NCBI GenBank assembly: GCA_965263035.1
Contig: OZ253580.1
Coordinates: forward strand, 1,392,196-1,456,195
Reading direction: 5' to 3'
Source: Acidobacteriota bacterium
Lineage (GTDB): Bacteria; Acidobacteriota; UBA6911; RPQK01; JAJDTT01
Length of the DNA stretch: 64,000 nt
Below, one piece after another: positions 48,382-64,000 of this stretch (position 1 is the stretch's first letter; each line of letters begins with the position of its first letter). The notes beneath the pieces were generated by a model, which saw nothing but the letters and a program-made list of their open reading frames with translations, made no database searches and was not told the DNA's origin. Both the position numbers and the translations under genes were made by a program.

Positions 48382-50843
48382 CTGCCCTATACCCACAAAT
48401 AGTGCTGGACAAACAAGAATGCCTGTCGTAGTCTTCACGACATGGTAGTTCAGAACCAGATCAAGCGCACCTTGAGCCGAGAGTTGGATCGTTTGCACGC
48501 CGTGATGAGGCGGGAGAAGTTCGCCCACCGGACGGCGCTGGCGGACCGGGTCTGCTCGGAGTTTGGATTTCACGATGCCCGAGGGCGGGCGCAACGGAGC
48601 GGCTGCCTGAAGGCGCTCCGGGAGCTGGAGGCGGGCGGACGGATTCGTCTGCCGACGCCGCGACGGCGGGTGAACCATTGCGGGCCCCGAGGACTGGGCC
48701 GTGCGGTGCCGGAGCCGGTCGGGGTGCCCGAGACGGTGGACGGCGTGCGGGAGCTGGAGTTGATTCTGGTGGAGACGGGTCCGCAACGAGCGCTCTGGAA
48801 CGAGTTGATGGCGCGAGAGCATCCACGGGGCGCGGGGCCGTTGGTGGGTGCTCAACTACGCTATCTGGTGGGCTCGGCCCACGGCTGGCTGGGGGGCTTG
48901 GGGTTCGGGGCGGCGGCGTTGCGGTTGCGGGACCGGGACCGCTGGATCGGATGGGATGAGGAACAACGCCGGGCGCACCTGCACCGGGTGGTGGGGCTGA
49001 GCCGGTTTCTGATCCGTCCGTCAGTGAGGTGTCGTAATCTGGCCTCCCGGGTGCTGGGGGAGGTGTTGCGGCGGCTGGGTCCGGAGTTCCAGGCGCGCTA
49101 CGGCTACCGTCCCTGGCTGGTGGAGACCTTCGTGGAGACGGCTCGCCACGATGGGGCCAGTTTGCGCGCCACGAACTGGAGGGTTCTGGGGCAGACGCAG
49201 GGTCGAGGCCGGCAAGATCGGGCGCACCGGGGTGCGGAGACGAGCAAGGCGATCTATGGGTATGAGTTGTGCCGGGATTGGCGGCGGCGGTTGGGGGTGG
49301 GACCGGCGCCGAGGCGGGGAGTGGAACCGATGTCGGAGGGCGAGGGACTGGAGGGAGCGGGCTGGGCTCAGCAGGAGTTGGGCGGGGCGCCGCTGGGAGA
49401 CCGGCGCTTGAGTCGGCGACTGGTGGAGAGTGCGCACCGACAGGCGCAGGAGCCGGGGCGGGCGTTCACGGGAGTGGCGCGGGGGGATTCTGCGGCGGTC
49501 AAGGGATACTACCGGCTGATCGACCAGCCGGAAGCCTCGGCGGTGACGGTGTCCAACATCCTGGCCCCGCACCGGGAGCGGACCCGGCAGCGGATGCAGG
49601 GGCAGCGGACGGTGCTGTGCATCCAGGACGGGAGCGATCTGAACTTCACGCGGCACGGCCGGTGTGAGGGACTGGGAGTGATCGGGCGCAACCAGACGGG
49701 AGCGACGGCGCGGGGACTGCATCTGCACGCGACGCTGGTGGTGAGTGAGACGGGGCTGCCGCTGGGGGTGTTGCGGGCGAAGCTGGACGCGCCGAAGCCG
49801 GGACCGGTGGCCACGCGGAAAAAGAAGAAGACGTATCGCTGGATCGAGGGACTTCGGGACTGCGCCGAGGTGTCGCGGTCCCTCGACGGGGTGCGGGTGG
49901 TCAGCGTGGTGGACCGGGAGGCGGATTTTTTCGCACTGTTCGCCGAGCAACGAGCGTCTCCGGAGGTGGAGTTGCTGGTGCGTGCGAAGCAGGATCGGGT
50001 GCTGAAGAGGAAGACCCCGGCGAAGGCGGCCGGGAAAAGCGCGGATCCGGACCCGGAGCAGAAGCGGAAGCTGTTCGGGCGCCTGCGATCGGCGCCGGTG
50101 CGGGCCCGGATGCTGCTGGAGGTGAAGCGTCAGAGTGCGCGGATCAAGGCCAGCAAGCAGGCGGCCCGCCCGCGGCGGCTGGCGCGGGTGGCTCGGATGG
50201 AACTGCGCTACGAGACCCTGACGATTCCGGCGCCGCGCGGGAACCCAACCGGCATCCCGTCGCTGAGACTGTCGGTGGTGCACGCGCGGGAGGTCGCGCC
50301 GCCGGCGCAGGGGAAGCGCCTGGAATGGTTCCTGCTCACCACCCTGCCGGTGACCGATGTCGAGACGGCGCAGCAACTGCTGAGATGGTATGCGCTGCGC
50401 TGGCGGGTGGAGGATTATTTCCGGGTGCTCAAGACCGGATGCCGGGTACAACAGCTCCAGCACCAAACCGCCGAACGTCTGAAACGGGCCATCGCCATGC
50501 ACGCCGTCATCGCCTGGCGGATCATGCTGATGACGCTGTTGGGGCGAGAGGACCCGGACCTGCCGGCGCAATTGTTGTTTTCCGATCTGGAAATCCGGGT
50601 CCTGGGGGCGTTTGCCGCGTCGCGAGGATTCCCAGCGCCGGAAGACCTGGGGGCGGCCGTGCTCGTGCTGGCCCGCCTGGGAGGATATCTGGCTCGTAAA
50701 CACGACTCCCCACCTGGGCATCAACTGATGTGGCAGGGCTACGTCACGCTCTACGGCATGTGTCTGGGCTTCGCTTTACGAGAAGAAACATGAATGAAAC
50801 CGGACGGCTAATTTGCCCTGTGCAATATGTGGGTAAAGGGCAG
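48382..50843 (+). mobile_element. IS4/Tn5-like insertion sequence, copy 3.
   Basis: 8-bp TSD GGCTAGGA at 48374-48381 and 50844-50851. The right TSD overlaps the start of MITE copy C. Confidence 0.9.
48442..50793 (+). CDS. Fusion transposase, copy 3.
   Basis: 783 aa. It differs from copy 4 at ~2 positions. Confidence 0.85.
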   Translation: MVVQNQIKRTLSRELDRLHAVMRREKFAHRTALADRVCSEFGFHDARGRAQRSGCLKALRELEAGGRIRLPTPRRRVNHCGPRGLGRAVPEPVGVPETVDGVRELELILVETGPQRALWNELMAREHPRGAGPLVGAQLRYLVGSAHGWLGGLGFGAAALRLRDRDRWIGWDEEQRRAHLHRVVGLSRFLIRPSVRCRNLASRVLGEVLRRLGPEFQARYGYRPWLVETFVETARHDGASLRATNWRVLGQTQGRGRQDRAHRGAETSKAIYGYELCRDWRRRLGVGPAPRRGVEPMSEGEGLEGAGWAQQELGGAPLGDRRLSRRLVESAHRQAQEPGRAFTGVARGDSAAVKGYYRLIDQPEASAVTVSNILAPHRERTRQRMQGQRTVLCIQDGSDLNFTRHGRCEGLGVIGRNQTGATARGLHLHATLVVSETGLPLGVLRAKLDAPKPGPVATRKKKKTYRWIEGLRDCAEVSRSLDGVRVVSVVDREADFFALFAEQRASPEVELLVRAKQDRVLKRKTPAKAAGKSADPDPEQKRKLFGRLRSAPVRARMLLEVKRQSARIKASKQAARPRRLARVARMELRYETLTIPAPRGNPTGIPSLRLSVVHAREVAPPAQGKRLEWFLLTTLPVTDVETAQQLLRWYALRWRVEDYFRVLKTGCRVQQLQHQTAERLKRAIAMHAVIAWRIMLMTLLGREDPDLPAQLLFSDLEIRVLGAFAASRGFPAPEDLGAAVLVLARLGGYLARKHDSPPGHQLMWQGYVTLYGMCLGFALREET

Positions 50844-50845
50844 GG

Positions 50846-51012
50846 CTAGGAGCCTGCGCGGCAGAAATTGATCTACTGCGAAAGCGGTAGAATCGGTCCA
50901 TATTTCCTCGATTTCTCGGCGAATAGAACAACTATGCACCTCCAAATCGAGAAAATCTGGCCTCGATTCCCCACTTTCTCGCTACGATCATTTCTACCGC
51001 GCAGACTCCTAG
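50846..51012 (+). repeat. MITE-like repeat, copy C.
   Basis: Identical in organisation to copy A. CTAG at 50846-50849 and 51009-51012; the latter contains the stop codon of the downstream methyltransferase gene. Confidence 0.85.
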
Positions 51013-51533
51013 ACCTCGCCGTAGACCTCCGCAAGGGCCTTGTTCTCGACCCGGATGCGCGTACGGAGCGCTAGCAGGTTCAGCACGGATGCGATCACTG
51101 CCAGTGTCCACGCGCCGAACATCAGCGGCACCACGGCGATCTCGCCGCAAACGATCAGGTAATTCGGGTGGTTGACGTAGCGGTACGGCCCGGCCCGAAT
51201 GCGTTTGGCGCCGGGCACGACCATGACGCGAGTCGTCCATCGCGAACCCAGGGTCACGACCACCCACACCCGCCCGCACTCCAGCAGGACGAAGACGGCC
51301 AGCAGCGGGATCGACACCGGCGTCTGCGGATCGATGGTGCCAAGCAGCGCCAGCAGCCAGCCGGCGTGCAGGGCGACAAGCGCGGGATAGTGCCGCCGGC
51401 CGAACTCGATCGCCCCCCGAGCCACCAGCGCCCGATGGTTGCGCCGTGCGATGCCCAGTTCCACGAGACGCTGAAAAACCAGAAAGCCGATGATCGCGTA
51501 CAGGGGGCTCATGGGAAACGAGCTCAGCATCAC
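51009..51533 (-). CDS. Isoprenylcysteine carboxyl methyltransferase (ICMT)-family membrane methyltransferase.
   Basis: Multi-TM ~170-aa protein with the C-terminal RVENKALAEVYGE-type motif of ICMT/phospholipid methyltransferase family enzymes. It overlaps the PKS gene by 4 bp. Confidence 0.7.
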   Translation of the reverse strand: MMLSSFPMSPLYAIIGFLVFQRLVELGIARRNHRALVARGAIEFGRRHYPALVALHAGWLLALLGTIDPQTPVSIPLLAVFVLLECGRVWVVVTLGSRWTTRVMVVPGAKRIRAGPYRYVNHPNYLIVCGEIAVVPLMFGAWTLAVIASVLNLLALRTRIRVENKALAEVYGEV

Positions 51534-52585
51534 ATCGACTGCAGTAGCAGGAATCCGGCCGAAAACCCCGGGCCCAGGCTGGTCAACAGGTGCCGTTTCG
51601 CCGTGCGGTCCCTGAGCATGCGGTCGAGTACGAACAGCACGGTCGCGGCCGACATGTTGCCGTAGTCACGCAAGACCGCCCGCGACTCTTCGAGCCCCCC
51701 GGGCGGGAGGTCGAACGCCTCTTCGAGGGCGTCAAGCACCTTGGCGCCGCCGGGGTGGCAGACGAAGCTGTCGATATCGCGAAGACCCAGGCTCCGGGTG
51801 GAAAGAAATTCCTCCGTTGCGCGCCGCATGCGCGAACGGACGAGGTCGGGAATACTGCGCGAGAACACGACCCCGAACCCGTCATCGGCCACGTCCCAAC
51901 CCATGATGTCGAGCGAATCAGGCCACGTGTATTCGCCCCACGAGGAGATCGCCGGTCCCGGTCCGTCATCCGTCAGCAATACCGCCGCGGCGCCGTCACG
52001 GAACAACGCCGTGGCGACGAGGTTCCGAACGGATCGATCGCGGCCACGGAACGTGAGGGTGCAGAGTTCTACGACCAGGAACAGAACGCGACTGCCAGGA
52101 GAAGCCCGCGCACAAGCGGCGGCGCGCGCCAGCCCCAGCACGCCTCCTGCGCATCCCAGACCGAAGATCGGCAGTCTTTGCACGTCGCGGCGAAACGGCA
52201 GCTCGGTCATGAGCCTGGCGTCCAGGCTGGGCGTAGCGATGCCGGTCGTCGAGACGGTGACGATCAGGTCGATGTCGCCGGGGTCGGTGTTGCCGGCGGC
52301 CAGGCACTCGACGGCCGCGTCTTTCAGCAGGGCCACCGCATTTTCGAGGTACAGCCGGTTCTTCTCCGCGAAGCCGTGCCCGGTTTCCCCGTACCAGCTT
52401 CTGGGCAGGCAGCAATACCCTTCTCCGATCGCCGCGTTCTCGTAAACATCAAGCAGGCGATCCAGGCCCGCGACGCTGCCGGCAAAGAAACTGGCACCGA
52501 AATCCCTGACCTCGTCCTGGGTTATCCGGTGGGACGGAACCGCCGTCGCGATCGACCTGATTCGCGGACCCGATTCTGCCGTCAC
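51530..52585 (-). CDS. Type III polyketide synthase (chalcone/stilbene synthase family).
   Basis: Catalytic Cys in GLGCAGG, His in CHPGGAKV, Asn in GNMSAATVLFVL, and the GPGFS C-terminal motif. Confidence 0.85.
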   Translation of the reverse strand: MTAESGPRIRSIATAVPSHRITQDEVRDFGASFFAGSVAGLDRLLDVYENAAIGEGYCCLPRSWYGETGHGFAEKNRLYLENAVALLKDAAVECLAAGNTDPGDIDLIVTVSTTGIATPSLDARLMTELPFRRDVQRLPIFGLGCAGGVLGLARAAACARASPGSRVLFLVVELCTLTFRGRDRSVRNLVATALFRDGAAAVLLTDDGPGPAISSWGEYTWPDSLDIMGWDVADDGFGVVFSRSIPDLVRSRMRRATEEFLSTRSLGLRDIDSFVCHPGGAKVLDALEEAFDLPPGGLEESRAVLRDYGNMSAATVLFVLDRMLRDRTAKRHLLTSLGPGFSAGFLLLQSM

Positions 52586-52860
52586 CGGAACCCCTCCTCC
52601 AGTCCAGTTCTCATCGGGAAATCCTCAAGTTATTGATAAATAAGGGATAAGAAGGCGTTTTCAAGTTCCGGTTCCAGCCTGATCATGGGTTAGGCCATTG
52701 GCGACAGATTAAAGACAACAAACGACTTGCACAAGACCGAGTGTTTGATCTTGCGTCGCCACCGGAAAAACCAACTTCGACTGACCAGCCCCTGGCCGGA
52801 CCAAGCGCAACAAGATCCTATAGCTCGCCACCATCCACGATGAAAAGGTCTTGGTTTCTA

Positions 52861-54036
52861 CTATCGTAGCGGGGGGCTCCAGATCGTCGCTCCGATGTAG
52901 CGCTCGGGGCCGGAGGCCTCGTCGGTGAAGTAGTACACCGCGACCACCTTGCCGTCCGGTCTCTGCACGGCTCGGACGTAGCCGATGTCGCGGCTGGCGC
53001 CGTCGTCGCGGAGCGTGACGGGTTCGCTCCAGGTCCGGCCACCGTCGCTACTGAGCACCGCACGAATGCTGTAGGGCTCGGCCCGGTAGCCGTAGAGCAG
53101 GCAGATGCGGCCGTCCCGCAGCCGGATCATGGCGGGCGGGTTGCCGACGCCCGTGTCGGAGACGGCGTCGTTGATGTACTCCCAGGTCGCACCGTTATCG
53201 GTGGACAGGTAGGTCGCGATCCACCGCCTGGGCCCTTCGCGATCGCGGACCGTCACCAGGATGTCGGTTTCGCTGAGCCGCAACGAGGCGGGCATGATGG
53301 AAAACCCCTCCTCCGGCTCGGGGGCGATCCAGGAAAGGAACTTCCAGGTCTTGCCGCCGTCGGTGGTGCGGACACAGAGGGGGCGGCCCTCCCTGCCGTT
53401 GGGCTTCGCGGCCGTGATGAACAGGGTGGAGGTTTCTTGGCCGTCGACGATGTAGTCCGTTCTGGGGGCGATTCCGGGAGTATCGAAGCTGGGTAGCCGG
53501 AACGGGCCGTCCCAGGAGCGCCCGCGGTCGTAGGAGTAGAACACCCGGCCGATTCCGGCGTGAATGCTGTTGGTGCGGACCGTCAGCGCGAAGTCGGGGT
53601 GGGTGAAGTCGATGCCGCCCTCGCTCTCCCGCAAGGGAGGGATGGTCACGCCCGGCCGCGTGACTCCGTGCAGATACCCCCCCTCGGTGAGCAGGTACCC
53701 GTTGGCGCCCGGATCCTCCAGCGACCAGGTCTCACCGCCGTCGAGGCTCCTGGCCAGCATGGGAATCTCGGGTTTTTCGCGATCGATGTGGTGGCTCAGA
53801 CCCTGATCCTTGTAGTAGCCCATGCCGAATCCGACGAGAATCTCCTCATCCCAGATCCAGATCCCGTGGTTGGCCGGCCACCCGCCGAACATGCCTTTCT
53901 CGAAGTAGACCTTGACGTGGCGGGGCTCGTCCGCCGGCTCCGCACCCTCACTGCTCGATCCCGAGTCGCCAGGGACTGTGCAGGCAACGGCCCCGATCGC
54001 CAGCACGCCTGCTGCGGCAATGTTTCTCCAAGTCAT
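52861..54036 (-). CDS. BNR/Asp-box repeat sialidase-like lipoprotein.
   Basis: Lipobox-like AIGAVAC signal. Five Asp-box repeats: SLDGGETW, SYDRGRSW, TTDGGKTW, STDNGATW, SSDGGRTW. Confidence 0.75.
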   Translation of the reverse strand: MTWRNIAAAGVLAIGAVACTVPGDSGSSSEGAEPADEPRHVKVYFEKGMFGGWPANHGIWIWDEEILVGFGMGYYKDQGLSHHIDREKPEIPMLARSLDGGETWSLEDPGANGYLLTEGGYLHGVTRPGVTIPPLRESEGGIDFTHPDFALTVRTNSIHAGIGRVFYSYDRGRSWDGPFRLPSFDTPGIAPRTDYIVDGQETSTLFITAAKPNGREGRPLCVRTTDGGKTWKFLSWIAPEPEEGFSIMPASLRLSETDILVTVRDREGPRRWIATYLSTDNGATWEYINDAVSDTGVGNPPAMIRLRDGRICLLYGYRAEPYSIRAVLSSDGGRTWSEPVTLRDDGASRDIGYVRAVQRPDGKVVAVYYFTDEASGPERYIGATIWSPPLR

Positions 54037-54246
54037 GGGATCCTCCATCTCTTCTTCACATTTCGCCCGAAGCCTATACCGGAATACCCGCCGCCGAACA
54101 TACGGATCCCGGTCAGTGTTGACAAGGCGTGGCGGGTCCCTGTCTTTGGGGTTGGCCGTAGAACGTCCAGGATCGGGCAAGAGTAGAGCCCCTGATCAAC
54201 GCTCCATGCCCAAGCCCGGCAATCTGCTACATTCAATGGACCCGAC

Positions 54247-56358
54247 ATGAACCACAGCCAGATCGCCAGCTTCATTTGGGGCGTGGCGGACCTGATCCGC
54301 GACACCTTCAAACGCGGCAAGTACCAGGACGTGATCCTGCCGCTCACCGTGCTGCGCCGGCTCGACTGCGTGCTGTCCCCTACGAAACCAAAGGTGCTGG
54401 AAGTCCAGGCCAGATTCAGGGGCAAACTCGAGAACCTCGACCCACTGCTTCGGCGCGCCTCCGGATTCGCCTTCTACAACACGTCCCGCTACGACTTCGA
54501 GAAACTGCTCGCCGACGCGCCTCACATCGCGCAGAACCTGCGGAACTACATCGCCGGGTTCAGCCCCAACATGCGGGAGGTGCTGGAGAAGTTCGACTTC
54601 GACAACACCATCTCCAAGCTCGACGAGGCGGGCCTCCTCTTCCTGGTCATGCAGCGGTTCGGCGACCCGAAGGTGAACCTCCACCCGGACGCCATCGACA
54701 ACTTCACCATGGGCACGATCTTCGAGGAGCTCATCCGTAAGTTCAACGAGGCGCTGAACGAGAACCCCGGCGAACACTTCACGCCCCGCGATGTGGTCCA
54801 TCTCATGGTGGACCTGATGCTGGCCGGTGACGAGGAAGAACTGCGCAAGAAGGGCGTTGCGCGGAGCGTCTACGACCCTTGCTGTGGCTCAGGCGGCATG
54901 CTCACCATCGCCAAGGAGCACACGACCCTCGGCGAGATACGAGAGGGCAAGCGGCTGGGCGACCCCGTGAACCCGGACGCTCACATCCACCTGTTCGGCC
55001 AGGAGGTGAACCCGGAAACGTTCGCGATCTGCAAGTCCGACCTCTTCATGAAGTCGAAAGACGGCCGCGACGCGAAGAAGATCCTGTTCGGGAGCACGCT
55101 CTCGAACGATCGGCACGCCGGAACCGGCTTCGACTACATGATCGCCAATCCTCCCTACGGCAAAGACTGGAAGCGCGACCAGGACGCAGTACGGGGCGAG
55201 CACGATCGAGGCGCTGCCGGCCGCTTCGCACCGGGCCTGCCGCGGATCAGCGACGGCCAGCTCCTGTTCCTGCTGCACATGCTCGCGCACGCCAAAGAAC
55301 CGGCCCAGGGCGGCTCCCGGGTGGCCATCATCATGAACGGCTCGCCGCTCTTCACCGGCGACGCCGGCAGCGGCGAGAGCGAAATCCGCCGCTGGATCCT
55401 TGAGAACGACCTGCTCGAGGCGCTCATCGCGCTGCCCGAGCAGCTCTTCTACAACACGGGGATCGCCACCTACGTCTGGGTGCTCACGAACCGGAAACGG
55501 CCCGAGCGGCGCGGCAAGGTCCAGCTCATCCACGCCACGTCGTTCTGGGTCCTGCTGCGAAAGAGCCTGGGCGCCAAACGCCGCGAAGTCCCGTTCGACC
55601 GCAAGGAGGACGTCCTGCGGCTGCTGGAGGACTTCGAGGACGGCGCGACCCGCAAGGTGGACGATAACGGCGAGGAACGGGAGGTGGTCGTCAGCCGCAT
55701 CTATCCCACCACCCGGTTCGGCTTTCGCAAGATCACGGTGGAACGGCCGCTTCGGCTCGATTTCCAGGCCAGCCCCGAGCGGATCGCGCGGCTCGACGAC
55801 CAGCGCGCCTTCGTCAACCTGGCCCGGTCCCGCAAGAAGGGCCCAGCCAAGGCCAAGGACGAGGCGGCGGGCCGCGAGAAGCAGGCCGCGATCCGCGCCC
55901 TCCTCCGTAGTCTGCCCGACCGGCTCTTCCTGGATCGGGCTGTCTTCGAATCCGAACTCTCCCGGGCAACGCAAACTGCCGGGCTGAAACTCACCGCGCC
56001 TCTAAAAAAAGCCGTGCTCTCCGCCCTGTCCGAGCGAAACACCGAAGCCGCGGTCTGCCGGGACCGAAAGGGCCGCCCGGAGCCCGATCCGCAGCTCCGC
56101 GACACGGAGAACGTGCCTCTCCTGGAGGACGTAGAGTCGTTCTTCGAGCGCGAGGTGAGGCCCCACGTTCCCGACGCCTGGATCGATTCTAAGCGCCGGG
56201 ACCCCCAGGACGGAAAGGTCGGGCTTGTGGGCTACGAGTTCAACTTCAATCGCTACTTCTACGAATACCGACCGCCCCGTCCCTTGGAGGAGATCGAGGC
56301 CGACATCCGGCGGGTGGAGAAGGAGATCGCGGCGATGCTGGAAGAGACGCGCGGTTGA
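54247..56358 (+). CDS. hsdM: Type I restriction-modification N6-adenine DNA methyltransferase subunit M (long form).
   Basis: HsdM_N start MNHSQIASFIWGVADLIRDTFKRGKYQDVILPLTVLRR. SAM motifs DPCCGSGGML and NPPYG. ~200-aa C-terminal extension. Confidence 0.85.
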   Translation: MNHSQIASFIWGVADLIRDTFKRGKYQDVILPLTVLRRLDCVLSPTKPKVLEVQARFRGKLENLDPLLRRASGFAFYNTSRYDFEKLLADAPHIAQNLRNYIAGFSPNMREVLEKFDFDNTISKLDEAGLLFLVMQRFGDPKVNLHPDAIDNFTMGTIFEELIRKFNEALNENPGEHFTPRDVVHLMVDLMLAGDEEELRKKGVARSVYDPCCGSGGMLTIAKEHTTLGEIREGKRLGDPVNPDAHIHLFGQEVNPETFAICKSDLFMKSKDGRDAKKILFGSTLSNDRHAGTGFDYMIANPPYGKDWKRDQDAVRGEHDRGAAGRFAPGLPRISDGQLLFLLHMLAHAKEPAQGGSRVAIIMNGSPLFTGDAGSGESEIRRWILENDLLEALIALPEQLFYNTGIATYVWVLTNRKRPERRGKVQLIHATSFWVLLRKSLGAKRREVPFDRKEDVLRLLEDFEDGATRKVDDNGEEREVVVSRIYPTTRFGFRKITVERPLRLDFQASPERIARLDDQRAFVNLARSRKKGPAKAKDEAAGREKQAAIRALLRSLPDRLFLDRAVFESELSRATQTAGLKLTAPLKKAVLSALSERNTEAAVCRDRKGRPEPDPQLRDTENVPLLEDVESFFEREVRPHVPDAWIDSKRRDPQDGKVGLVGYEFNFNRYFYEYRPPRPLEEIEADIRRVEKEIAAMLEETRG

Positions 56359-56491
56359 CGCCGACCCGTCTGCGGCGGCTGCGGGCCAAGCAGACCGAGA
56401 GGAGACTGTCGCCGCTCCCCGTCAGTCTCCTTCGTGCGATTCACAGCAGTTGACACGCACTCGACGCCACAAGACTTCCGGTTCTACCTCC

Positions 56492-56520
56492 TTGACACAC
56501 ACCATGTGTGGCTCTAGGAT
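56492..56520 (+). promoter_or_regulatory. Sigma70-like promoter with an embedded operator-like inverted repeat for the VapBC-like pair.
   Basis: TTGACA (56492-56497), a 17-bp spacer and TAGGAT (56515-56520). The spacer contains CACAC-CAT-GTGTG. It sits immediately upstream of the antitoxin ATG at 56529. Confidence 0.4.
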
Positions 56521-56528
56521 CACGGACC

Positions 56529-56834
56529 ATGGGAGATACGCGGCGAGTCCAAGTGACGCTCGATGCGAGGGGATACGCGGCGGTGTCGCGGATTGCACGA
56601 CGCGAAGGGAAGAAGCTGGCCGCAGTCGTGCGGGAGGCCGTCGAGCAGTACTGCGTTCTGCCGGAGGCGCGGCAACGGCGACTGGAGGCCATCGACAGGC
56701 TGTACGCGACGGGGGCGGTCCCAGCGCCAGAATCGCTGCCGGAGTGGGAACGCCAGTACAGTCGGCTGAAGGTCGGCCTGGCTACCGACTGTCTCCACAC
56801 CACCGAAGGTCCGGGAAGTCACGAGGACAGTTGA
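56529..56834 (+). CDS. Ribbon-helix-helix (CopG/VapB-like) antitoxin.
   Basis: ~100 aa. The N-terminal RRVQVTLDARGYAAVSRIARREG is RHH-like. Its stop overlaps the start of the PIN gene (TTGA). Confidence 0.6.
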   Translation: MGDTRRVQVTLDARGYAAVSRIARREGKKLAAVVREAVEQYCVLPEARQRRLEAIDRLYATGAVPAPESLPEWERQYSRLKVGLATDCLHTTEGPGSHEDS

Positions 56835-57259
56835 CGAGCGTGCGTGATTCACTGTTCGTGGACGCCAACGTGTTCATGTACCTCGCGGGCGGTGATGCCC
56901 TGTACCGGGAGGCCTGCCGACGGGCTCTGTTGGCCGCGACTGAGCAGGGGACCATGTTGATCACCAGCACAGAAGTACTGCAGGAGATCCTCCATTACCA
57001 TGTCGCCCGAAGGCGGCCCGAAAACGCCCGGACCGTGTACCGGGCAGTGACAGACATCTGCGACGAGATCCTGCCGGTGACGGAACACCAAACGGCCCGT
57101 GCGCTCGAACTGCTGGTGCGGCATCCCGGGTTGCCGGCACGAGACGCCCTGCACGTCGCGACGATGGAGGTCCACGGCGTCGAGCGGCTGCTGTCGGCAG
57201 ACCGGCACTTCGATCAGATCGACACCGTCACGCGTGTCGACCCGCTCGCCCCCCCTTGA
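56831..57259 (+). CDS. vapC: PIN-domain toxin (VapC-like).
   Basis: LFVDANVFMY N-terminal Asp, conserved acidic residues (TSTEVLQE, DALHVA) and ~140 aa. It is the 3' part of a longer track ORF in the same frame. Confidence 0.65.
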   Translation: MTSVRDSLFVDANVFMYLAGGDALYREACRRALLAATEQGTMLITSTEVLQEILHYHVARRRPENARTVYRAVTDICDEILPVTEHQTARALELLVRHPGLPARDALHVATMEVHGVERLLSADRHFDQIDTVTRVDPLAPP

Positions 57260-57533
57260 TCCTCCGCCTGCACTGGACGACAAACAGGCGGAGAATGAGA
57301 CCGCCGTCATGCTGCAGGACATGACGGCGAGTTGATCTCCGGGCGCGTGCGCCTCGGGCACGCGAGATCCCAGCCGAGCGGTTCGAGCCGGATTGAACAC
57401 GCAGAGTGGCAGCCTCTCTGGCACAGACTGCGCTGGGCGCGCCCTCGCCGGTGTTTTCGCCGTTTGCCGGCGCCTCGCTCAAGGGGATGGCGGAGCGACG
57501 GCTTCGGCGGCCTGGGCGAATCAGGAACAAACT

Positions 57534-57559
57534 GTCGGCACTTGTTTTTATGTGCCGAC
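57534..57559 (+). promoter_or_regulatory. Inverted repeat, candidate AbiEi operator upstream of abiEi.
   Basis: GTCGGCAC-ttgtttttat-GTGCCGAC, a perfect 8-bp arm IR 20 bp upstream of the abiEi ATG. AbiEi antitoxins are known to autoregulate via promoter inverted repeats. Confidence 0.4.
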
Positions 57560-57580
57560 AATCATTACGATTCTTTCATG

Positions 57581-58180
57581 ACTGAACTCACTGCTGCCGC
57601 GCTCGAAGAAGCCGGCATTGGAGCCTTTTTCCGGCCGCGAGACATTGAGGCGCTCGGTGTCCCGTACCGTCGCCTCCGCGGACTCGTTGCGGCCGGTGCC
57701 GTGGAGAACCTCGGCGGCGGCCTTTACCGGCTGGCCGAGGTCGAGCCGACCGAGCTGGAAACGGTCGCCATGGTGGCTGCTGCCGTGCCGCACGCGATCG
57801 TCTGCCTGATGACCGCGCTCCGCGTCCACCAGATCGGAACCGAGTCCCCTCACGAGGTCTGGATAGCCATCAACCGCAAGGCGCGCCGGCCCACCCGAGT
57901 GCCGGCGCAGATTCGCGTCGTCTGGTTCTCGAAGGCGATGCTCACATACGGGGTCGTGCGCCGCCCGATGCTCGGCGTGCCGGTTGCGATCACATCGCCG
58001 GCCCGGACGGTCGTCGACTGCTTCCGGTACCGCAACAAGTTCGGCCTCGACACCGCGCTGGAGGCGCTCCGGGACGTGCTGCGCCAACGGCTCGCCACCG
58101 TGGATGAGATCATGCGCGCAGCCAGCGTCTGCCGGGCTCGCACGGTCCTGCAGCCCTACATGGAAGCGGTTCTGTCGTGA
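57581..58180 (+). CDS. abiEi: AbiEi-family type IV antitoxin / transcriptional regulator.
   Basis: ~200 aa. N-terminal winged-helix region (FFRPRDIEALGVPYRRLRGLVAAGAVENLGGGLYRL) typical of AbiEi/COG5340. 4-bp overlap with abiEii. Confidence 0.7.
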   Translation, partial: TELTAAALEEAGIGAFFRPRDIEALGVPYRRLRGLVAAGAVENLGGGLYRLAEVEPTELETVAMVAAAVPHAIVCLMTALRVHQIGTESPHEVWIAINRKARRPTRVPAQIRVVWFSKAMLTYGVVRRPMLGVPVAITSPARTVVDCFRYRNKFGLDTALEALRDVLRQRLATVDEIMRAASVCRARTVLQPYMEAVLS

Positions 58181-59127
58181 CGAGACGCCATCTCAAGAAC
58201 GTCGCGGCGTCCGTCCGTGCCCGGCTGCTCGCCCGCAGTCGCGAAACCGGCGAGGATTTCCAGTTTCTCCTGTGGAGGTACGTGGTCGAACGATTCCTTT
58301 TCCGTCTTAGCCATTCCCCCTACCGTGATCGCTTCGTTCTGAAAGGGGCCATGCTCTTCGCTCTCTGGAACGAGGCGTTCCACCGGCAGACCCAGGACAT
58401 TGACTTCGCCGCCTACGGCGACTCGGAAACCGACGACTTTGTGACGGAGTTGCAGCAAGTTTGCTGTACCGGCGTTGACGACGACGGCGTTGTCTTCCAC
58501 GCCGACCAGATCAGCAGCAGCACAATCCGCGGCACAACGGACAAGGGCGGCACCCGCTACCGCTTCCCGGCGACCGTTGGCGGAGCCCGCATAACCGTGC
58601 AGGTCGACATCGGCGTCGGCGACTCGATTCAGCCACCGCCGGAGGATGCCGAATTCCCGACGCTGCTCGACACCGCCCCGTGCCACGTTCGTGCGTATCC
58701 GAAGGAAGCGGTCGTCTCCGAGAAGTTCCACGCTACGGTCGCACACGGTGAGCGGACGAGCCGCTACAAGGACTTCTTCGACCTGTACGAATTGGCTCGG
58801 TGCTTCCGCTTCGACGGCGTGCGACTCGTGCAGGCCCTTGTCGCGACTTTCGAGAGCCGTAGTTCACCGACCGAAGCGGTCCCGCTCTCCCTGACCAGCG
58901 GCTTCTATACAGACACGGCGCGAGGCGAACGCTGGCGGGCCTATCTGACCAAGCGCGGGCGCCTGCCGGCGCCCATGGACTTCGGTGCTGTCGGTGAACT
59001 CGTCACGCTCTTCCTGGCACCGCCGTGGCGCGCCCTGTTACGTAGGGACCGATTTATAGCCGCGTGGCCTGCCGGCGGGCCGTGGCGGCCCGGGATTCGG
59101 GCCCGGACGGGAGGTGAAGGACTGTGA
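58177..59127 (+). CDS. abiEii: AbiEii/AbiGii-family nucleotidyltransferase toxin (DUF1814).
   Basis: N-terminal MTRRHLKNVAASVRARLL...FQFLLWRYVVERFLFRL and the NTase motif KGAMLF...DIDFA. Confidence 0.75.
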   Translation: MTRRHLKNVAASVRARLLARSRETGEDFQFLLWRYVVERFLFRLSHSPYRDRFVLKGAMLFALWNEAFHRQTQDIDFAAYGDSETDDFVTELQQVCCTGVDDDGVVFHADQISSSTIRGTTDKGGTRYRFPATVGGARITVQVDIGVGDSIQPPPEDAEFPTLLDTAPCHVRAYPKEAVVSEKFHATVAHGERTSRYKDFFDLYELARCFRFDGVRLVQALVATFESRSSPTEAVPLSLTSGFYTDTARGERWRAYLTKRGRLPAPMDFGAVGELVTLFLAPPWRALLRRDRFIAAWPAGGPWRPGIRARTGGEGL

Positions 59128-59261
59128 CCGAAGGAACCGATCGGAAGGAGGAGGCGCGGCCGCGGCGTTTTCGGCCGTACCCTGAGTACAGTGACTCCGG
59201 TATCGAGTCGCTGGGCGAAATTCCGGCACATTGGGACGTGAGACGGCTCAAGACCCTAGCC
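59124..59261 (+). pseudogene. hsdS: Type I R-M specificity subunit HsdS, 5' fragment (gene split by IS copy 4).
   Basis: Encodes VTEGTDRKEEARPRRFRPYPEYSDSGIESLGEIPAHWDVRRLKTLA. IPAHWDVRRLK is HsdS N-terminus-like. The frame is broken by the IS at 59262. Confidence 0.7.
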
Positions 59262-61723
59262 CTGCCCTATACCCACAAATAGTGCTGGACAAACAAGAAT
59301 GCCTGTCGTAGTCTTCACGACATGGTAGTTCAGAACCAGATCAAGCGCACCTTGAGCCGAGAGTTGGATCGTTTGCACGCCGTGATGAGGCGGGAGAAGT
59401 TCGCCCACCGGACGGCGCTGGCGGACCGGGTCTGCTCGGAGTTTGGATTTCACGATGCCCGAGGGCGGGCGCAACGGAGCGGCTGCCTGAAGGCGCTCCG
59501 GGAGTTGGAGGCGCGCGGACGGATTCGTCTGCCGACGCCGCGACGGCGGGTGAAACATTGCGGGCCCCGAGGACTGGGCCGTGCGGTGCCGGAGCCGGTC
59601 GGGGTGCCCGAGACGGTGGACGGCGTGCGGGAGCTGGAGTTGATTCTGGTGGAGACGGGTCCGCAACGAGCGCTCTGGAACGAGTTGATGGCGCGAGAGC
59701 ATCCACGGGGCGCGGGGCCGTTGGTGGGTGCTCAACTACGCTATCTGGTGGGCTCGGCCCACGGCTGGCTGGGGGGCTTGGGGTTCGGGGCGGCGGCGTT
59801 GCGGTTGCGGGACCGGGACCGCTGGATCGGATGGGATGAGGAACAACGCCGGGCGCACCTGCACCGGGTGGTGGGGCTGAGCCGGTTTCTGATCCGTCCG
59901 TCAGTGAGGTGTCGTAATCTGGCCTCCCGGGTGCTGGGGGAGGTGTTGCGGCGGCTGGGTCCGGAGTTCCAGGCGCGCTACGGCTACCGTCCCTGGCTGG
60001 TGGAGACCTTCGTGGAGACGGCTCGCCACGATGGGGCCAGTTTGCGCGCCACGAACTGGAGGGTTCTGGGGCAGACGCAGGGTCGAGGCCGGCAAGATCG
60101 GGCGCACCGGGGTGCGGAGACGAGCAAGGCGATCTATGGGTATGAGTTGTGCCGGGATTGGCGGCGGCGGTTGGGGGTGGGACCGGCGCCGAGGCGGGGA
60201 GTGGAACCGATGTCGGAGGGCGAGGGACTGGAGGGAGCGGGCTGGGCTCAGCAGGAGTTGGGCGGGGCGCCGCTGGGAGACCGGCGCTTGAGTCGGCGAC
60301 TGGTGGAGAGTGCGCACCGACAGGCGCAGGAGCCGGGGCGGGCGTTCACGGGAGTGGCGCGGGGGGATTCTGCGGCGGTCAAGGGATACTACCGGCTGAT
60401 CGACCAGCCGGAAGCCTCGGCGGTGACGGTGTCCAACATCCTGGCCCCGCACCGGGAGCGGACCCGGCAGCGGATGCAGGGGCAGCGGACGGTGCTGTGC
60501 ATCCAGGACGGGAGCGATCTGAACTTCACGCGGCACGGCCGGTGTGAGGGACTGGGAGTGATCGGGCGCAACCAGACGGGAGCGACGGCGCGGGGACTGC
60601 ATCTGCACGCGACGCTGGTGGTGAGTGAGACGGGGCTGCCGCTGGGGGTGTTGCGGGCGAAGCTGGACGCGCCGAAGCCGGGACCGGTGGCCACGCGGAA
60701 AAAGAAGAAGACGTATCGCTGGATCGAGGGACTTCGGGACTGCGCCGAGGTGTCGCGGTCCCTCGACGGGGTGCGGGTGGTCAGCGTGGTGGACCGGGAG
60801 GCGGATTTTTTCGCACTGTTCGCCGAGCAACGAGCGTCTCCGGAGGTGGAGTTGCTGGTGCGTGCGAAGCAGGATCGGGTGCTGAAGAGGAAGACCCCGG
60901 CGAAGGCGGCCGGGAAAAGCGCGGATCCGGACCCGGAGCAGAAGCGGAAGCTGTTCGGGCGCCTGCGATCGGCGCCGGTGCGGGCCCGGATGCTGCTGGA
61001 GGTGAAGCGTCAGAGTGCGCGGATCAAGGCCAGCAAGCAGGCGGCCCGCCCGCGGCGGCTGGCGCGGGTGGCTCGGATGGAACTGCGCTACGAGACCCTG
61101 ACGATTCCGGCGCCGCGCGGGAACCCAACCGGCATCCCGTCGCTGAGACTGTCGGTGGTGCACGCGCGGGAGGTCGCGCCGCCGGCGCAGGGGAAGCGCC
61201 TGGAATGGTTCCTGCTCACCACCCTGCCGGTGACCGATGTCGAGACGGCGCAGCAACTGCTGAGATGGTATGCGCTGCGCTGGCGGGTGGAGGATTATTT
61301 CCGGGTGCTCAAGACCGGATGCCGGGTACAACAGCTCCAGCACCAAACCGCCGAACGTCTGAAACGGGCCATCGCCATGCACGCCGTCATCGCCTGGCGG
61401 ATCATGCTGATGACGCTGTTGGGGCGAGAGGACCCGGACCTGCCGGCGCAATTGTTGTTTTCCGATCTGGAAATCCGGGTCCTGGGGGCGTTTGCCGCGT
61501 CGCGAGGATTCCCAGCGCCGGAAGACCTGGGGGCGGCCGTGCTCGTGCTGGCCCGCCTGGGAGGATATCTGGCTCGTAAACACGACTCCCCACCTGGGCA
61601 TCAACTGATGTGGCAGGGCTACGTCACGCTCTACGGCATGTGTCTGGGCTTCGCTTTACGAGAAGAAACATGAATGAAACCGGACGGCTAATTTGCCCTG
61701 TGCAATATGTGGGTAAAGGGCAG
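59262..61723 (+). mobile_element. IS4/Tn5-like insertion sequence, copy 4, inserted in hsdS.
   Basis: 8-bp TSD CCCTAGCC at 59254-59261 and 61724-61731. Confidence 0.9.
59322..61673 (+). CDS. Fusion transposase, copy 4.
   Basis: 783 aa. All DDE residues are intact. Confidence 0.85.
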   Translation: MVVQNQIKRTLSRELDRLHAVMRREKFAHRTALADRVCSEFGFHDARGRAQRSGCLKALRELEARGRIRLPTPRRRVKHCGPRGLGRAVPEPVGVPETVDGVRELELILVETGPQRALWNELMAREHPRGAGPLVGAQLRYLVGSAHGWLGGLGFGAAALRLRDRDRWIGWDEEQRRAHLHRVVGLSRFLIRPSVRCRNLASRVLGEVLRRLGPEFQARYGYRPWLVETFVETARHDGASLRATNWRVLGQTQGRGRQDRAHRGAETSKAIYGYELCRDWRRRLGVGPAPRRGVEPMSEGEGLEGAGWAQQELGGAPLGDRRLSRRLVESAHRQAQEPGRAFTGVARGDSAAVKGYYRLIDQPEASAVTVSNILAPHRERTRQRMQGQRTVLCIQDGSDLNFTRHGRCEGLGVIGRNQTGATARGLHLHATLVVSETGLPLGVLRAKLDAPKPGPVATRKKKKTYRWIEGLRDCAEVSRSLDGVRVVSVVDREADFFALFAEQRASPEVELLVRAKQDRVLKRKTPAKAAGKSADPDPEQKRKLFGRLRSAPVRARMLLEVKRQSARIKASKQAARPRRLARVARMELRYETLTIPAPRGNPTGIPSLRLSVVHAREVAPPAQGKRLEWFLLTTLPVTDVETAQQLLRWYALRWRVEDYFRVLKTGCRVQQLQHQTAERLKRAIAMHAVIAWRIMLMTLLGREDPDLPAQLLFSDLEIRVLGAFAASRGFPAPEDLGAAVLVLARLGGYLARKHDSPPGHQLMWQGYVTLYGMCLGFALREET

Positions 61724-61731
61724 CCCTAGCC

Positions 61732-62970
61732 TCGGTGCAACTGAGCAATGTCGACAAGAAAACCGTAGAAGGCCAAGCTCCCGTAAAACTCTGCAACTAC
61801 GTCGACGTTTACTACAATGACTTCATCACCGCCGGGCTCGAATTCATGAACGCAACCGCCACACCCGAACAGGTGCGGCGATTCATGCTCCGGGGCGGCG
61901 ATGTTTTGATCACCAAGGACTCGGAATCCTGGAATGACATAGCAGTCCCCGCTGTCGTGGTCGAAGAACTGACGGATGTCCTGTGTGGATACCACCTGGC
62001 ACAAATCAGGCCGCGATCAGGTCTTGATGGGCGGTTTCTTGCCCGCCAATTCTCGGCGATTGGCACCCGGGACCAGTTCCATCTTGCGGCCAACGGAATA
62101 ACACGGTTCGGCTTGGGTGGAGATGCAATCCGTAGCGGTCTGTTTCCGATCGCGCCGATCGAGGAACAACAAGTCATCGCTGACTTCCTTGACCGCGAGA
62201 CGGCGAAGATCGATGCGTTGGTGGAGCAGAAGGAGCGGCTGGTTGAGTTGCTTCAGGAGAAGCGCAGCGCTTTCATCGCCCGTGCCGTCACCCGGGGCCT
62301 CGACCCGAACGTCCCCATGAAGGACTCCGGCGTCGAGTGGCTGGGCGAGATCCCGACACACTGGAAGCTTAAGCCGCTCAAGCGTCTTCTAAGCCGAAGT
62401 GACTATGGAATATCGGAGAGCTTGGGAGTAGGAGGTGATATCCGGGTTCTAACTATGGCGCACATTCAAAATGGCGAGGTTGTATTGCCCCATGATGGCA
62501 GCATCAGTGAAATCGACCGGTCAATGAGGCTTGAGTCCGGCGACCTTCTGTTCAACAGAACCAACAGCCGTGAGCTCGTAGGTAAGGTCGGTATATTTCG
62601 TGGCAACCACGATGATTGCGTGACCTTTGCATCGTACCTTGTAAGGTTAACCCCGCGTCAGCACGTCGAACCCGAATGGCTAAACTACCTGCTCAACTCC
62701 ACTGGCGTTCTTGGAATGGCGCGAAGCATGGCATTACTTAGTGTAAACCAAGCCAATCTCAACCCAACCAAGCACCAGCAAATTATCATACCTGTGCCCG
62801 CACCCGCTGAACAGCGAACCATCGCAGGTTTCTTACGCGGGGAGACCGCGAAGATCGATTCCCTCATCGTCAAGATCCGGCAAGCAATCAGCTACCTCCA
62901 CGAATTTCGCACCGCTCTTATCTCCGCGGCGGTCACCGGCAAGATTGATGTCCGGGAGGAAGCGTCATGA
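61732..62970 (+). pseudogene. hsdS: HsdS, 3' fragment (both target-recognition domains).
   Basis: Continues in frame from the 5' fragment once the IS and one TSD copy are removed (...LKTLA|SVQLSNVDKK...). It contains the conserved HsdS coiled-coil repeats LDRETAKIDALVEQKERLVELLQEKRSAFI and LRGETAKIDSLIVKIRQAISYLHEFRTALISAAVTGKIDV. Confidence 0.75.
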
Positions 62971-64000
62971 GCCCCGAGGTATCTGAGCGAGCCTTCGAAG
63001 AGGCGATCGAGTGTTCGCTACTTCGAGATGGTCCGGACGCCTGCCCGGGCGACGCGATGACAGTGAGGGAATCGCCACGGGCATACGGTGCCGAGCCGGT
63101 GCCAGGCGGCTACCACAGACGGCGTCCGGAGGACTTCGACCGCAGGCTCTGCCTGATCACGGCCGACGTTGTCGACTTCCTCCTCGCCACCCAGCCGAAG
63201 GAGTGGGAGAAGCTCAAGCAGCACCACGGTGCCGACGTGAAGCCCCGCTTCCTGGGCCGGCTCTCGCGTGAGATCACCCGGCGGGGGGCGCTCGACGTGT
63301 TGCGCAACGGCGTCAAGGACTCGGGCTGCAAGTTCCGGATGGCGTACTTCCGGCCGGCGAGCGGGCTCAACGAGGAATTGCAGCGCCTGCACGGGGCCAA
63401 CCTCTTCGCTGTTGTGCGCCAGCTCCGCTTCAGCGAGAAGACTGAGCAGAGTGTCGATCTCGCCCTCTTCCTGAACGGCATCCCCGTCTTCACGGCCGAG
63501 CTCAAGAACCCGCTCAACGGGCAGGATGTCGAGGACGCAATCCGGCAGTACAAGCACGACCGGGACCCTCGCGAGCCGCTCTTCGGCTACGGACGCTGCC
63601 TCGCCCATTTCGCCGTGGACCCGGAGCAGGTGTTCGTGACGACCCAACTCGCCGGGCCCAGGACCCGGTTCCTGCCATTCAACCAGGGACGCTTCGGCGG
63701 TGCGGGGAATCCTCCGATCCCGCCCACTCGTACGGGCTTCCCGACCGACTACCTGTGGGAGCGGATCTGGGCCCGCGACAGCGTCCTCGATCTCGTCCGG
63801 CAGTTCATCCACGAGGTCGAGGTGGAGGACGACCGCGGGCGCAGAACCGGCAAGCGGATCCTGATCTTCCCGCGTTTCCAGCAGCTCGCCTGCGTGCGCC
63901 GGCTCGTGCGTCACGCACGCAACCACGGCGCCGGTGAGCGCTACCTGATCCAGCATTCTGCCGGCAGCGGCAAGAGCTTCACCATCGCCTGGCTCGCCCA
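62967..64000 (+). CDS. hsdR: Type I restriction enzyme R subunit HsdR, 3' partial (runs off window).
   Basis: The ATG at 62967 overlaps the hsdS stop. The frame is open to the window end. HsdR N-terminal nuclease region (FLNGIPVFTAELKNPLNGQDVEDAIRQY) and helicase motif I (HSAGSGKSFTIAWLA). It is not in the ORF track because it has no stop in the window. Confidence 0.75.
   Translation, partial: MSPEVSERAFEEAIECSLLRDGPDACPGDAMTVRESPRAYGAEPVPGGYHRRRPEDFDRRLCLITADVVDFLLATQPKEWEKLKQHHGADVKPRFLGRLSREITRRGALDVLRNGVKDSGCKFRMAYFRPASGLNEELQRLHGANLFAVVRQLRFSEKTEQSVDLALFLNGIPVFTAELKNPLNGQDVEDAIRQYKHDRDPREPLFGYGRCLAHFAVDPEQVFVTTQLAGPRTRFLPFNQGRFGGAGNPPIPPTRTGFPTDYLWERIWARDSVLDLVRQFIHEVEVEDDRGRRTGKRILIFPRFQQLACVRRLVRHARNHGAGERYLIQHSAGSGKSFTIAWLA

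Follow-up and report, generated by a model that had tools for sequence, protein, structure and literature searches.

The locus described here lies at the end of a 64,000-nucleotide stretch of an Acidobacteriota contig (OZ253580.1), the whole of which is called the window, and is a type I restriction-modification (R-M) operon in which two toxin–antitoxin (TA) pairs are placed between the genes for the methyltransferase subunit HsdM and the specificity subunit HsdS. The genes follow one another on the same strand in the order hsdM, a ribbon-helix-helix (RHH) antitoxin gene, a PIN-domain toxin gene, abiEi, abiEii, an hsdS gene split by an insertion sequence (IS) and hsdR (Table 1). A preliminary description, made from the letters and their open reading frames, had proposed this order and the presence of same-strand abortive infection (Abi) and TA cassettes within a type I R-M operon; the order is real, profile searches back every domain assignment, and the same searches together with PADLOC uphold the placement of the cassettes. 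The sequence has 4-bp overlaps between abiEi and abiEii (GTGA, as already described), between abiEii and hsdS (GTGA) and between hsdS and hsdR (ATGA). Comparison with related loci makes it probable that the locus is a chromosomal copy of a widespread type I R-M family with the standard layout hsdM, abiEi, abiEii, hsdS, hsdR, in which AbiE is resident, to which a VapBC-like module has been added and whose hsdS has been split by an IS.

HsdM contains the N-terminal and N6-adenine methyltransferase domains of a type I methyltransferase subunit (PF02384, 3e-53; PF12161, 3e-23) and matches the PADLOC model MTase_I (PDLC03029) over its full length with E = 1e-266, and the NPPY and DPCCGSGG motifs are readable in its translation. 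The window ends within hsdR. The complete gene, taken from the 346-kb metagenomic contig to which the window belongs (L001; long reads at about 4x coverage), encodes ResIII/DEAD, SWI2_SNF2, T1R_D3 and C-terminal SLFN_AlbA_2 domains (TIGR00348, 5.6e-61), and HsdR has both the N-terminal nuclease and the superfamily 2 (SF2) helicase motor of a type I enzyme.

Table 1. Features of the locus and of its surroundings (positions are those of the window unless a locus is named; aa, amino acids)
Feature	Position	Strand	Details
hsdM	54247-56358	+	703 aa, long-form type I methyltransferase subunit; HsdM_N and N6_Mtase
Sigma-70-like promoter of the RHH/PIN cassette	56492-56520	+	TTGACA-17-TAGGAT, 10/12 consensus matches
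Palindrome within this promoter	56498-56510	+	CACAC-CAT-GTGTG
RHH (CopG-like) antitoxin gene, vapB-like	56529-56834	+	101 aa; RHH_1 19.2 bits, cut-off 20.5
PIN-domain toxin gene, vapC-like	56840 (GTG) or 56831 (TTG) to 57259	+	139 or 142 aa; PF01850 E = 7.5e-16
abiE operator (predicted)	57534-57559	+	inverted repeat GTCGGCAC-N10-GTGCCGAC; overlaps TTGTTT -35-like hexamer
-10-like hexamer	57566-57571	+	TACGAT
abiEi antitoxin/repressor gene	57578-58180	+	200 aa; PADLOC AbiEi E = 1.9e-62
abiEii DUF1814 nucleotidyltransferase toxin gene	58177-59127	+	316 aa; PF08843 E = 3e-44; PADLOC AbiEii E = 2.9e-96
hsdS 5' piece	59124-59261	+	46 codons; GTG start overlaps abiEii stop; PADLOC Specificity_I E = 5.5e-10
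IS4-family insertion sequence	59262-61723	+	2462 bp; transposase at 59322-61673
hsdS remainder	61732-62970	+	412 codons; PADLOC Specificity_I E = 2.8e-105
hsdR 5' part	62967-64000, off window end	+	344/1178 codons; HSDR_N E = 1.5e-16
hsdR, complete	L001:14791-18327
Target duplication flanking the IS in hsdS	59254-59261 and 61724-61731		8 bp, CCCTAGCC
Internal repeat of conserved helices in hsdS	62164-62214 and 62809-62859
IS4-family copies	11198-13662, 29356-31817, 48382-50843, 59262-61723		4 copies in 64 kb, same orientation
Hairpin just past hsdM	56401-56430		GGAGACTG-N14-CAGTCTCC
Spacer after the PIN stop codon	57262-57400	+	three strong hairpins
ICMT-family methyltransferase gene	51009-51533	-
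Type III polyketide synthase gene	51530-52585	-
BNR/sialidase-like gene	52861-54180	-

A genome scan with HsdM recovered 80 loci/genomes at 74–93% identity from Acidobacteriota, Proteobacteria, Chloroflexota, Gemmatimonadota, Planctomycetota, Spirochaetota, Rokubacteria and others. Together with L001 and a further locus, L002, these make 82 loci, and layouts were counted in the 74 that have hsdS downstream of hsdM. At least one AbiEi gene lies between hsdM and hsdS in 64 of the 74 (86%); the AbiEi/AbiEii pair is complete in 49, AbiEi is kept with AbiEii lost or truncated in about 15, and hsdM is followed directly by hsdS in 6. The usual spacing is 125–180 nt from hsdM to abiEi and 0–20 nt from abiEii to hsdS. 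Over the 27 loci in which all four proteins are complete, the pairwise identities for AbiEi and for AbiEii correlate with those for HsdM (Spearman 0.75 and 0.82, respectively; Mantel p = 0.001), the comparison value for HsdR against HsdM in the same analysis being 0.93. Across these loci AbiE thus behaves as a conserved, co-inherited component of the operon family that co-diversifies with HsdM and HsdR. The earlier picture of two cassettes embedded as equals has to be given up, since AbiE is present in 64 of 74 loci and co-inherited whereas the RHH/PIN pair occurs in the nearest relatives only. Plasmid relatives of HsdM with 45–48% identity have hsdM directly next to hsdS with no AbiE between them, so that the AbiE link is specific to this HsdM clade. 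The plasmid homologues of AbiEii are mostly free-standing.

The junctions between hsdM and abiE and between hsdS and hsdR hold different genes in different loci. The cargo found there includes Xre-HTH and Fic proteins, a different FitA-RHH/PIN pair, HicAB, GmrSD, ABC/SMC-like ATPases, SLFN_AlbA_2 proteins, a Ser/Thr kinase, a KAP NTPase, a Macro-domain protein, DUF4411, a type IIG-like methylase and transposases, and by this survey both junctions are cargo hot spots. The SLFN_AlbA_2 (Schlafen/AlbA_2) domain that ends the 1178-aa HsdR of the clade occurs also in free-standing cargo proteins of related loci.

The PADLOC match of AbiEi spans residues 15–198, two Pfam models fall just short of their cut-offs (AbiEi_4, 24.6 against 25; AbiEi_1, 19.4 against 22.2), and matches in the Protein Data Bank (PDB) are weak and include AbiEi of Streptococcus agalactiae (6Y8Q). 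With the PADLOC assignment and the 4-bp GTGA overlap, abiEi has the place and type of the COG5340-type antitoxin gene that precedes the toxin gene in AbiE systems. AbiEii aligned to S. agalactiae AbiEii (9HLO_B) keeps the KG(G/A), T-x-DID, GD and KDF-D motifs and hence the catalytic motifs of a DUF1814 toxin, and its T72 aligns with the phosphoacceptor T65 of the S. agalactiae protein. The ratio of nonsynonymous to synonymous substitution rates (dN/dS), calculated against L086, L067, L004 and L005 from small counts, is below 0.5 for all five genes (0.09–0.48), with 0.11–0.16 for abiEi, 0.15–0.26 for the RHH gene and 0.18–0.48 for the PIN gene.

Two types of AbiE occur in the family. The type of the window is complete in the window, L002, L086, L087 and L088, and L088 has both AbiE pairs complete; in many other loci the window-type antitoxin alone survives upstream of a second, complete AbiE pair. 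Such orphan AbiEi genes, 80–96% identical to that of the window and preceded by the operator described below, stand before the second pair in L003, L004, L006, L007, L013, L016, L021, L044, L045 and L067, and in L004 and L067 the orphan has a dN/dS of 0.11–0.16 despite the deleted toxin. Since both types share operator half-sites, cross-regulation between the two AbiEi types is possible. The last ~20 residues of AbiEii, in a segment that overlaps the ribosome-binding region of hsdS, are identical in the two types, the remainder being about 42% identical. A chimeric origin of AbiEii was rejected, since the sharing is limited to these residues and the rest is about 42% identical throughout.

An inverted repeat in front of abiEi had been put forward as a candidate operator. 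It is present as described, and its support comes from related loci: within the window alone, neither this repeat nor the palindrome and promoter of the RHH/PIN cassette exceeds chance, and both cis elements become significant through comparison. In 11 of the 12 loci with window-type abiEi, the palindrome and a -10-like TAC(G/T/C)AT are constant both in sequence and in distance to the start codon, and four unrelated contexts make up the DNA beyond them. When the 200 nt upstream of abiEi genes were surveyed, GTCGGCA-N(11-13)-TGCCGAC with at most two mismatches was found at 52 of 79 genes, as against 115 of 7821 (1.5%) background windows from the same loci. Variants alter both arms symmetrically, as in GTAGGCA/TGCCTAC, a pattern that is typical of a protein-binding operator and marks the repeat as a predicted site. 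In S. agalactiae, binding of AbiEi to promoter palindromes is established. The comparison thus provides the inverted repeat expected for AbiE autoregulation, as a predicted binding site. With the ATG only 6 nt past the -10-like hexamer in the window, the abiEi transcript may be leaderless. We regard it as very improbable that the repeat acts as an RNA hairpin, namely a terminator or attenuator closing the upstream transcript, and not as a protein operator. It can fold into a 9-bp stem (-16.2 kcal/mol, z = -4.05) and is located at the end of the preceding transcription unit, but a U tract is missing after it, its loop is 10–12 nt long, and its arms are constant as sequence across phyla instead of varying freely with compensation, the rare variants being symmetric; the fixed distance to the conserved -10-like hexamer and start codon in the window-type loci and the palindromic operators bound by AbiEi in S. 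agalactiae also argue for a protein site.

The first of the two TA pairs resembles VapBC. The RHH_1 model is matched by 12 of 24 RHH homologues (best E = 4.8e-7), the window protein itself remaining below the cut-off, and the RHH family profile matches the RHH regulator AvtR (4HV0), so that a DNA-binding antitoxin gene precedes the toxin gene as in VapBC. The PIN protein has the PIN domain and the four acidic residues (D, E, D, D) of a VapC, readable in FVDANV, TSTEVLQE, ARDALH and SADRHFD. It reaches 19.4 bits with the NCBIfam VapC model (cut-off 73.6), and a PDB sequence search returned no solved homologue. Since PADLOC has no model matching either the RHH or the PIN protein, a defence role of this pair is an assumption. 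The 4-bp overlap reported for the two genes would stand if the PIN protein started at TTG 56831; GTG 56840, which leaves a gap of 5 nt, has the better spacing to a GAGGA Shine-Dalgarno sequence, is used by public gene calls and is the more likely start, and the overlap is therefore doubtful.

The promoter with its enclosed palindrome, also pointed out earlier, lies where it had been read. All six cassette loci have both hexamers at the 17-nt spacing and share only the outer CACA...TGTG of the palindrome; this conservation, among six close relatives, lends the promoter weak support. A second TTGACAC is found 44 nt upstream. Among the related loci the pair is restricted to the window, L002–L005, L067 and L086, which identifies it as a lineage-specific addition in the hsdM–abiE junction, one of many alternative cargos and equipped with its own putative promoter. 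The spacer after the PIN stop codon can form three strong hairpins (-63.9 kcal/mol, z = -2.66) without a U tract, and L003 and L004 have lost part of it; the hairpin just past hsdM likewise lacks a U tract.

The disruption of hsdS, noticed in the preliminary description, is exact. The IS is flanked by an 8-bp target duplication, and excision of 59262-61731 restores an in-frame hsdS of 458 aa with the insertion at codon 46. The rejoined HsdS is 79% identical to that of L010 over its full length, aligns end to end with those of related loci and has an internal repeat of conserved helices. As it stands, the window has no intact HsdS with two target-recognition domains and two helical regions; the rejoined gene is a normal hsdS, and the family assignment holds. 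HsdS is required for both methylation and restriction (PMC11411939). Because hsdS is split and HsdS is needed for both functions, the R-M part of the window strain is predicted to be inactive, with methylation and restriction untargetable. Of the layered-immunity operon that had been suggested, the cassettes inside the operon stand, but a working one cannot be claimed here, since hsdS is split and only the two TA modules are intact.

Four copies of this IS are present in the window, and the copy in hsdS differs from that at 48382-50843 at 3 positions. The terminal inverted repeats begin CTGCCCT(A/T)TACCCACA, and a separate 8-bp duplication with CTAG at its centre flanks each copy (GGCTAGCT, TCCTAGCC, GGCTAGGA and CCCTAGCC). 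The window contains 20 CTAG sites against 215 expected from base composition, a ten-fold under-representation, and 4 of the ~16 original sites, about a quarter, are occupied by the IS. The 783-aa transposase (NF033590 IS4, 1.6e-89) has Tn5-type DNA-binding, DDE and dimerisation domains behind an N-terminal DruA/DUF4338 domain, which has been described as GNAT-like. Its first 300 residues match 535 cluster representatives at E <= 1e-30, many of them 740–800 aa long with the N-terminal domain, and by these matches the fusion of DruA/DUF4338 to a transposase is a large family. An origin of the genes between the two nearest copies (50844-59261) as a composite transposon was rejected because the copies have separate duplications, GGCTAGGA and CCCTAGCC; it is also ruled out by L086, where these genes occupy the corresponding site, no IS is present and GGCTAGGA occurs once. 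Independent insertions have hit hsdS in the window, L002 and L033. In L002 an IS of 1759 bp (DDE_Tnp_1_4; L002:11731-13491) with a 9-bp duplication cuts the hsdS allele of the window at a different codon, and in L033 two ISs (L033:15276-18574) cut an allele that is 76% identical. Selection for the knock-out of hsdS is not needed to explain the insertion in the window, since the IS inserts only at CTAG and fills 4 of ~16 sites.

The closest genomes are metagenome-assembled genomes of Acidobacteriota near Vicinamibacterales. L086, from a 5.9-Mb genome with 154x coverage, shares the chromosomal neighbourhood of the window at 96% nucleotide identity and has the seven genes intact and no IS; a single GGCTAGGA is found where the window carries the upstream IS copy (48382-50843). 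Its HsdS is just 36% identical to that of the window, indicating that specificity domains have been exchanged between the two. Beside the empty IS target, L086 has an AT-rich stretch of ~100 nt with a 16-bp inverted repeat, GGAGGCTGTCCGAGAA...TTCTCGGACAGCCTCC (L086:1720-1850), which is absent from the window and is possibly a miniature mobile element. At the same chromosomal site L087 retains no more than fragments of the R-M genes, with AbiEi and AbiEii intact and a Phd/ParE pair gained.

A working model of the locus can be built on the AbiE mechanism described for other systems (PMC3985639; bioRxiv 10.64898/2026.01.19.700257). By homology and by the anatomy of the promoter, AbiEi would bind the operator and repress its own promoter. 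Because there is no room for another promoter downstream, AbiEi probably also sets the transcription level of hsdS and hsdR. AbiEi would neutralise AbiEii by inducing autophosphorylation of Thr72. Should phage shut-off or loss of the locus cut the supply of AbiEi, AbiEii would nucleotidylate tRNA 3' ends and translation would arrest, resulting either in abortive infection or in post-segregational killing that retains the operon. The PIN RNase held by its RHH partner would act in the same manner as a second addiction or abortive module. Both modules are, on the evidence of their sequences, most likely autoregulated TA systems that arrest translation on antitoxin failure, and in the window strain the locus would amount to two TA modules beside a disabled R-M system.

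Several points weigh against an operon family with a resident, defensive AbiE. AbiE of S. agalactiae gave no protection against 32 coliphages in Escherichia coli, and a defence role of a given AbiE pair is therefore not assured. The ~15 toxin-less loci fit addiction and anti-addiction dynamics as well as defence. Co-diversification of AbiE with the Hsd proteins could partly be shared vertical descent of whole genomes, and it is solely from the absence of spacing that we infer a common transcript of hsdS and hsdR starting at the abiE promoter. Single-base errors are possible at ~4x long-read coverage, yet all open reading frames are open. A doubtful but serious alternative sees in both TA pairs nothing but selfish addiction modules that lodged in permissive junctions of a mobile R-M operon and persist because they are hard to lose, with no defence benefit and no functional tie to restriction. 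The survival of an intact AbiEi/AbiEii and the gain of Phd/ParE among the R-M fragments of L087 would be expected in that case. Orphan antitoxins are common and those of L004 and L067 are still under purifying selection; the nearest plasmid homologues of AbiEii stand alone beside replication and partition genes, AbiE is known from the literature to stabilise plasmids, and neither protein of the RHH/PIN pair is recognised by PADLOC. A purely opportunistic guest, however, is not expected to occupy one fixed position in 86% of loci across phyla, to co-diversify with HsdM and HsdR and to overlap the start of hsdS, and the remaining junction cargo consists mostly of domains with a recognised defence role, among them GmrSD, Fic, ABC ATPases and the KAP NTPase.

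A tighter bond, in which AbiE is wired to restriction, seems unlikely. AbiEi would then be a controller of hsdS and hsdR in the manner of a C protein, and AbiEii a PrrC-like backup freed when an anti-restriction protein blocks HsdM/S. Because of the 4-bp overlaps from abiEii to hsdS and from hsdS to hsdR, the AbiEi-controlled promoter is the sole visible one for hsdS and hsdR; the operator is conserved clade-wide, AbiE and the HsdM and HsdR proteins co-diversify, and two AbiEii types with only 42% identity elsewhere share their last ~20 residues, those at the hsdS junction. Precedents for an Abi effector that guards a type I system exist in PrrC and Ronin. The link seen between AbiE and Hsd, however, is genetic linkage and not physical contact, extra cargo between hsdS and hsdR in many loci makes at least hsdR separable, and AbiE persists where R-M has decayed, as in L087. 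The shared C-terminus of AbiEii could be just a recombination anchor or the ribosome-binding region of hsdS, and AbiEii has no similarity to PrrC. The reading of the locus as a member of an operon family with resident AbiE, an added VapBC-like pair and a split hsdS is thus preferred to both alternatives.

The components of such an operon family have relatives among known systems. Like AbiE of Lactococcus lactis and S. agalactiae and MenAT of Mycobacterium tuberculosis, the pair of the window is bicistronic with overlapping genes and has a DUF1814 toxin with motifs I–IV and the phosphoacceptor Thr, a COG5340-type antitoxin and a promoter palindrome. It differs in that its operator is a single palindrome of 7–8 bp arms with a 10–12 nt spacer, the known systems having a pair of repeats, IR1 and IR2, of 11–23 bp, in that its start codon lies 6 nt past the -10-like hexamer, as would allow a leaderless transcript, and in that it is not free-standing but sits in a type I R-M operon with hsdS following gaplessly. 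The RHH/PIN pair shares with VapBC type II TA systems the RHH gene directly before the PIN gene, the four acidic PIN residues and the palindrome-containing promoter; it differs in the weak match to the NCBIfam VapC model, in having no solved homologue by sequence, and in the 60-residue C-terminal extension of its antitoxin with a conserved W73. Type I operons with embedded genes, namely PrrC in EcoprrI, rlo of Campylobacter, TgvAB in Vibrio cholerae VPI-2 and those of the 'guilt-by-embedding' survey by Payne et al. 2024, likewise have same-strand Abi or defence genes within the hsd operon and junctions that are hot spots for variable cargo. Unlike in those operons, AbiE is near-constant over a cross-phylum clade and co-diversifies with Hsd, the other cargo varying around it.

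Defence genes embedded in type I operons are thus already published, and the locus is a well-resolved addition and not a new system. No statement placing AbiE between hsdM and hsdS was found in the searchable literature, and the sole part not found stated there is that AbiE and its operator are constant throughout the clade. Makarova and colleagues reportedly noted COG5340/COG2253 pairs inside type I operons in 2011.

For annotation, the locus should be treated as a member of one operon family (hsdM-abiEi-abiEii-hsdS-hsdR) with variable cargo slots and not as a chance defence island, and its restriction part should be scored as inactive in the window strain. It is conceivable, if improbable, that in this cross-phylum clade AbiE is no passenger but a working part of the restriction system, with AbiEi controlling hsdS and hsdR through GTCGGCA-N12-TGCCGAC and AbiEii serving as a backup effector triggered by a block of restriction or by loss of the operon. 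If this is true, the family would be a unit of five genes joining R-M and Abi, a counterpart to EcoprrI-PrrC built on a tRNA-nucleotidylating toxin. The family offers ~70 natural variants (intact, toxin-less, with doubled AbiE or with decayed R-M) and a sharply defined operator, and these can be used to ask whether an embedded Abi or TA module regulates or backs up the type I enzyme, a question that concerns embedded defence genes generally.

Upstream of the operon, the opposite strand carries genes for a type III polyketide synthase and an ICMT-family methyltransferase, which form a pair, and a BNR/sialidase-like gene immediately precedes hsdM. This neighbourhood (51009-54180) is conserved in L086 and L087.

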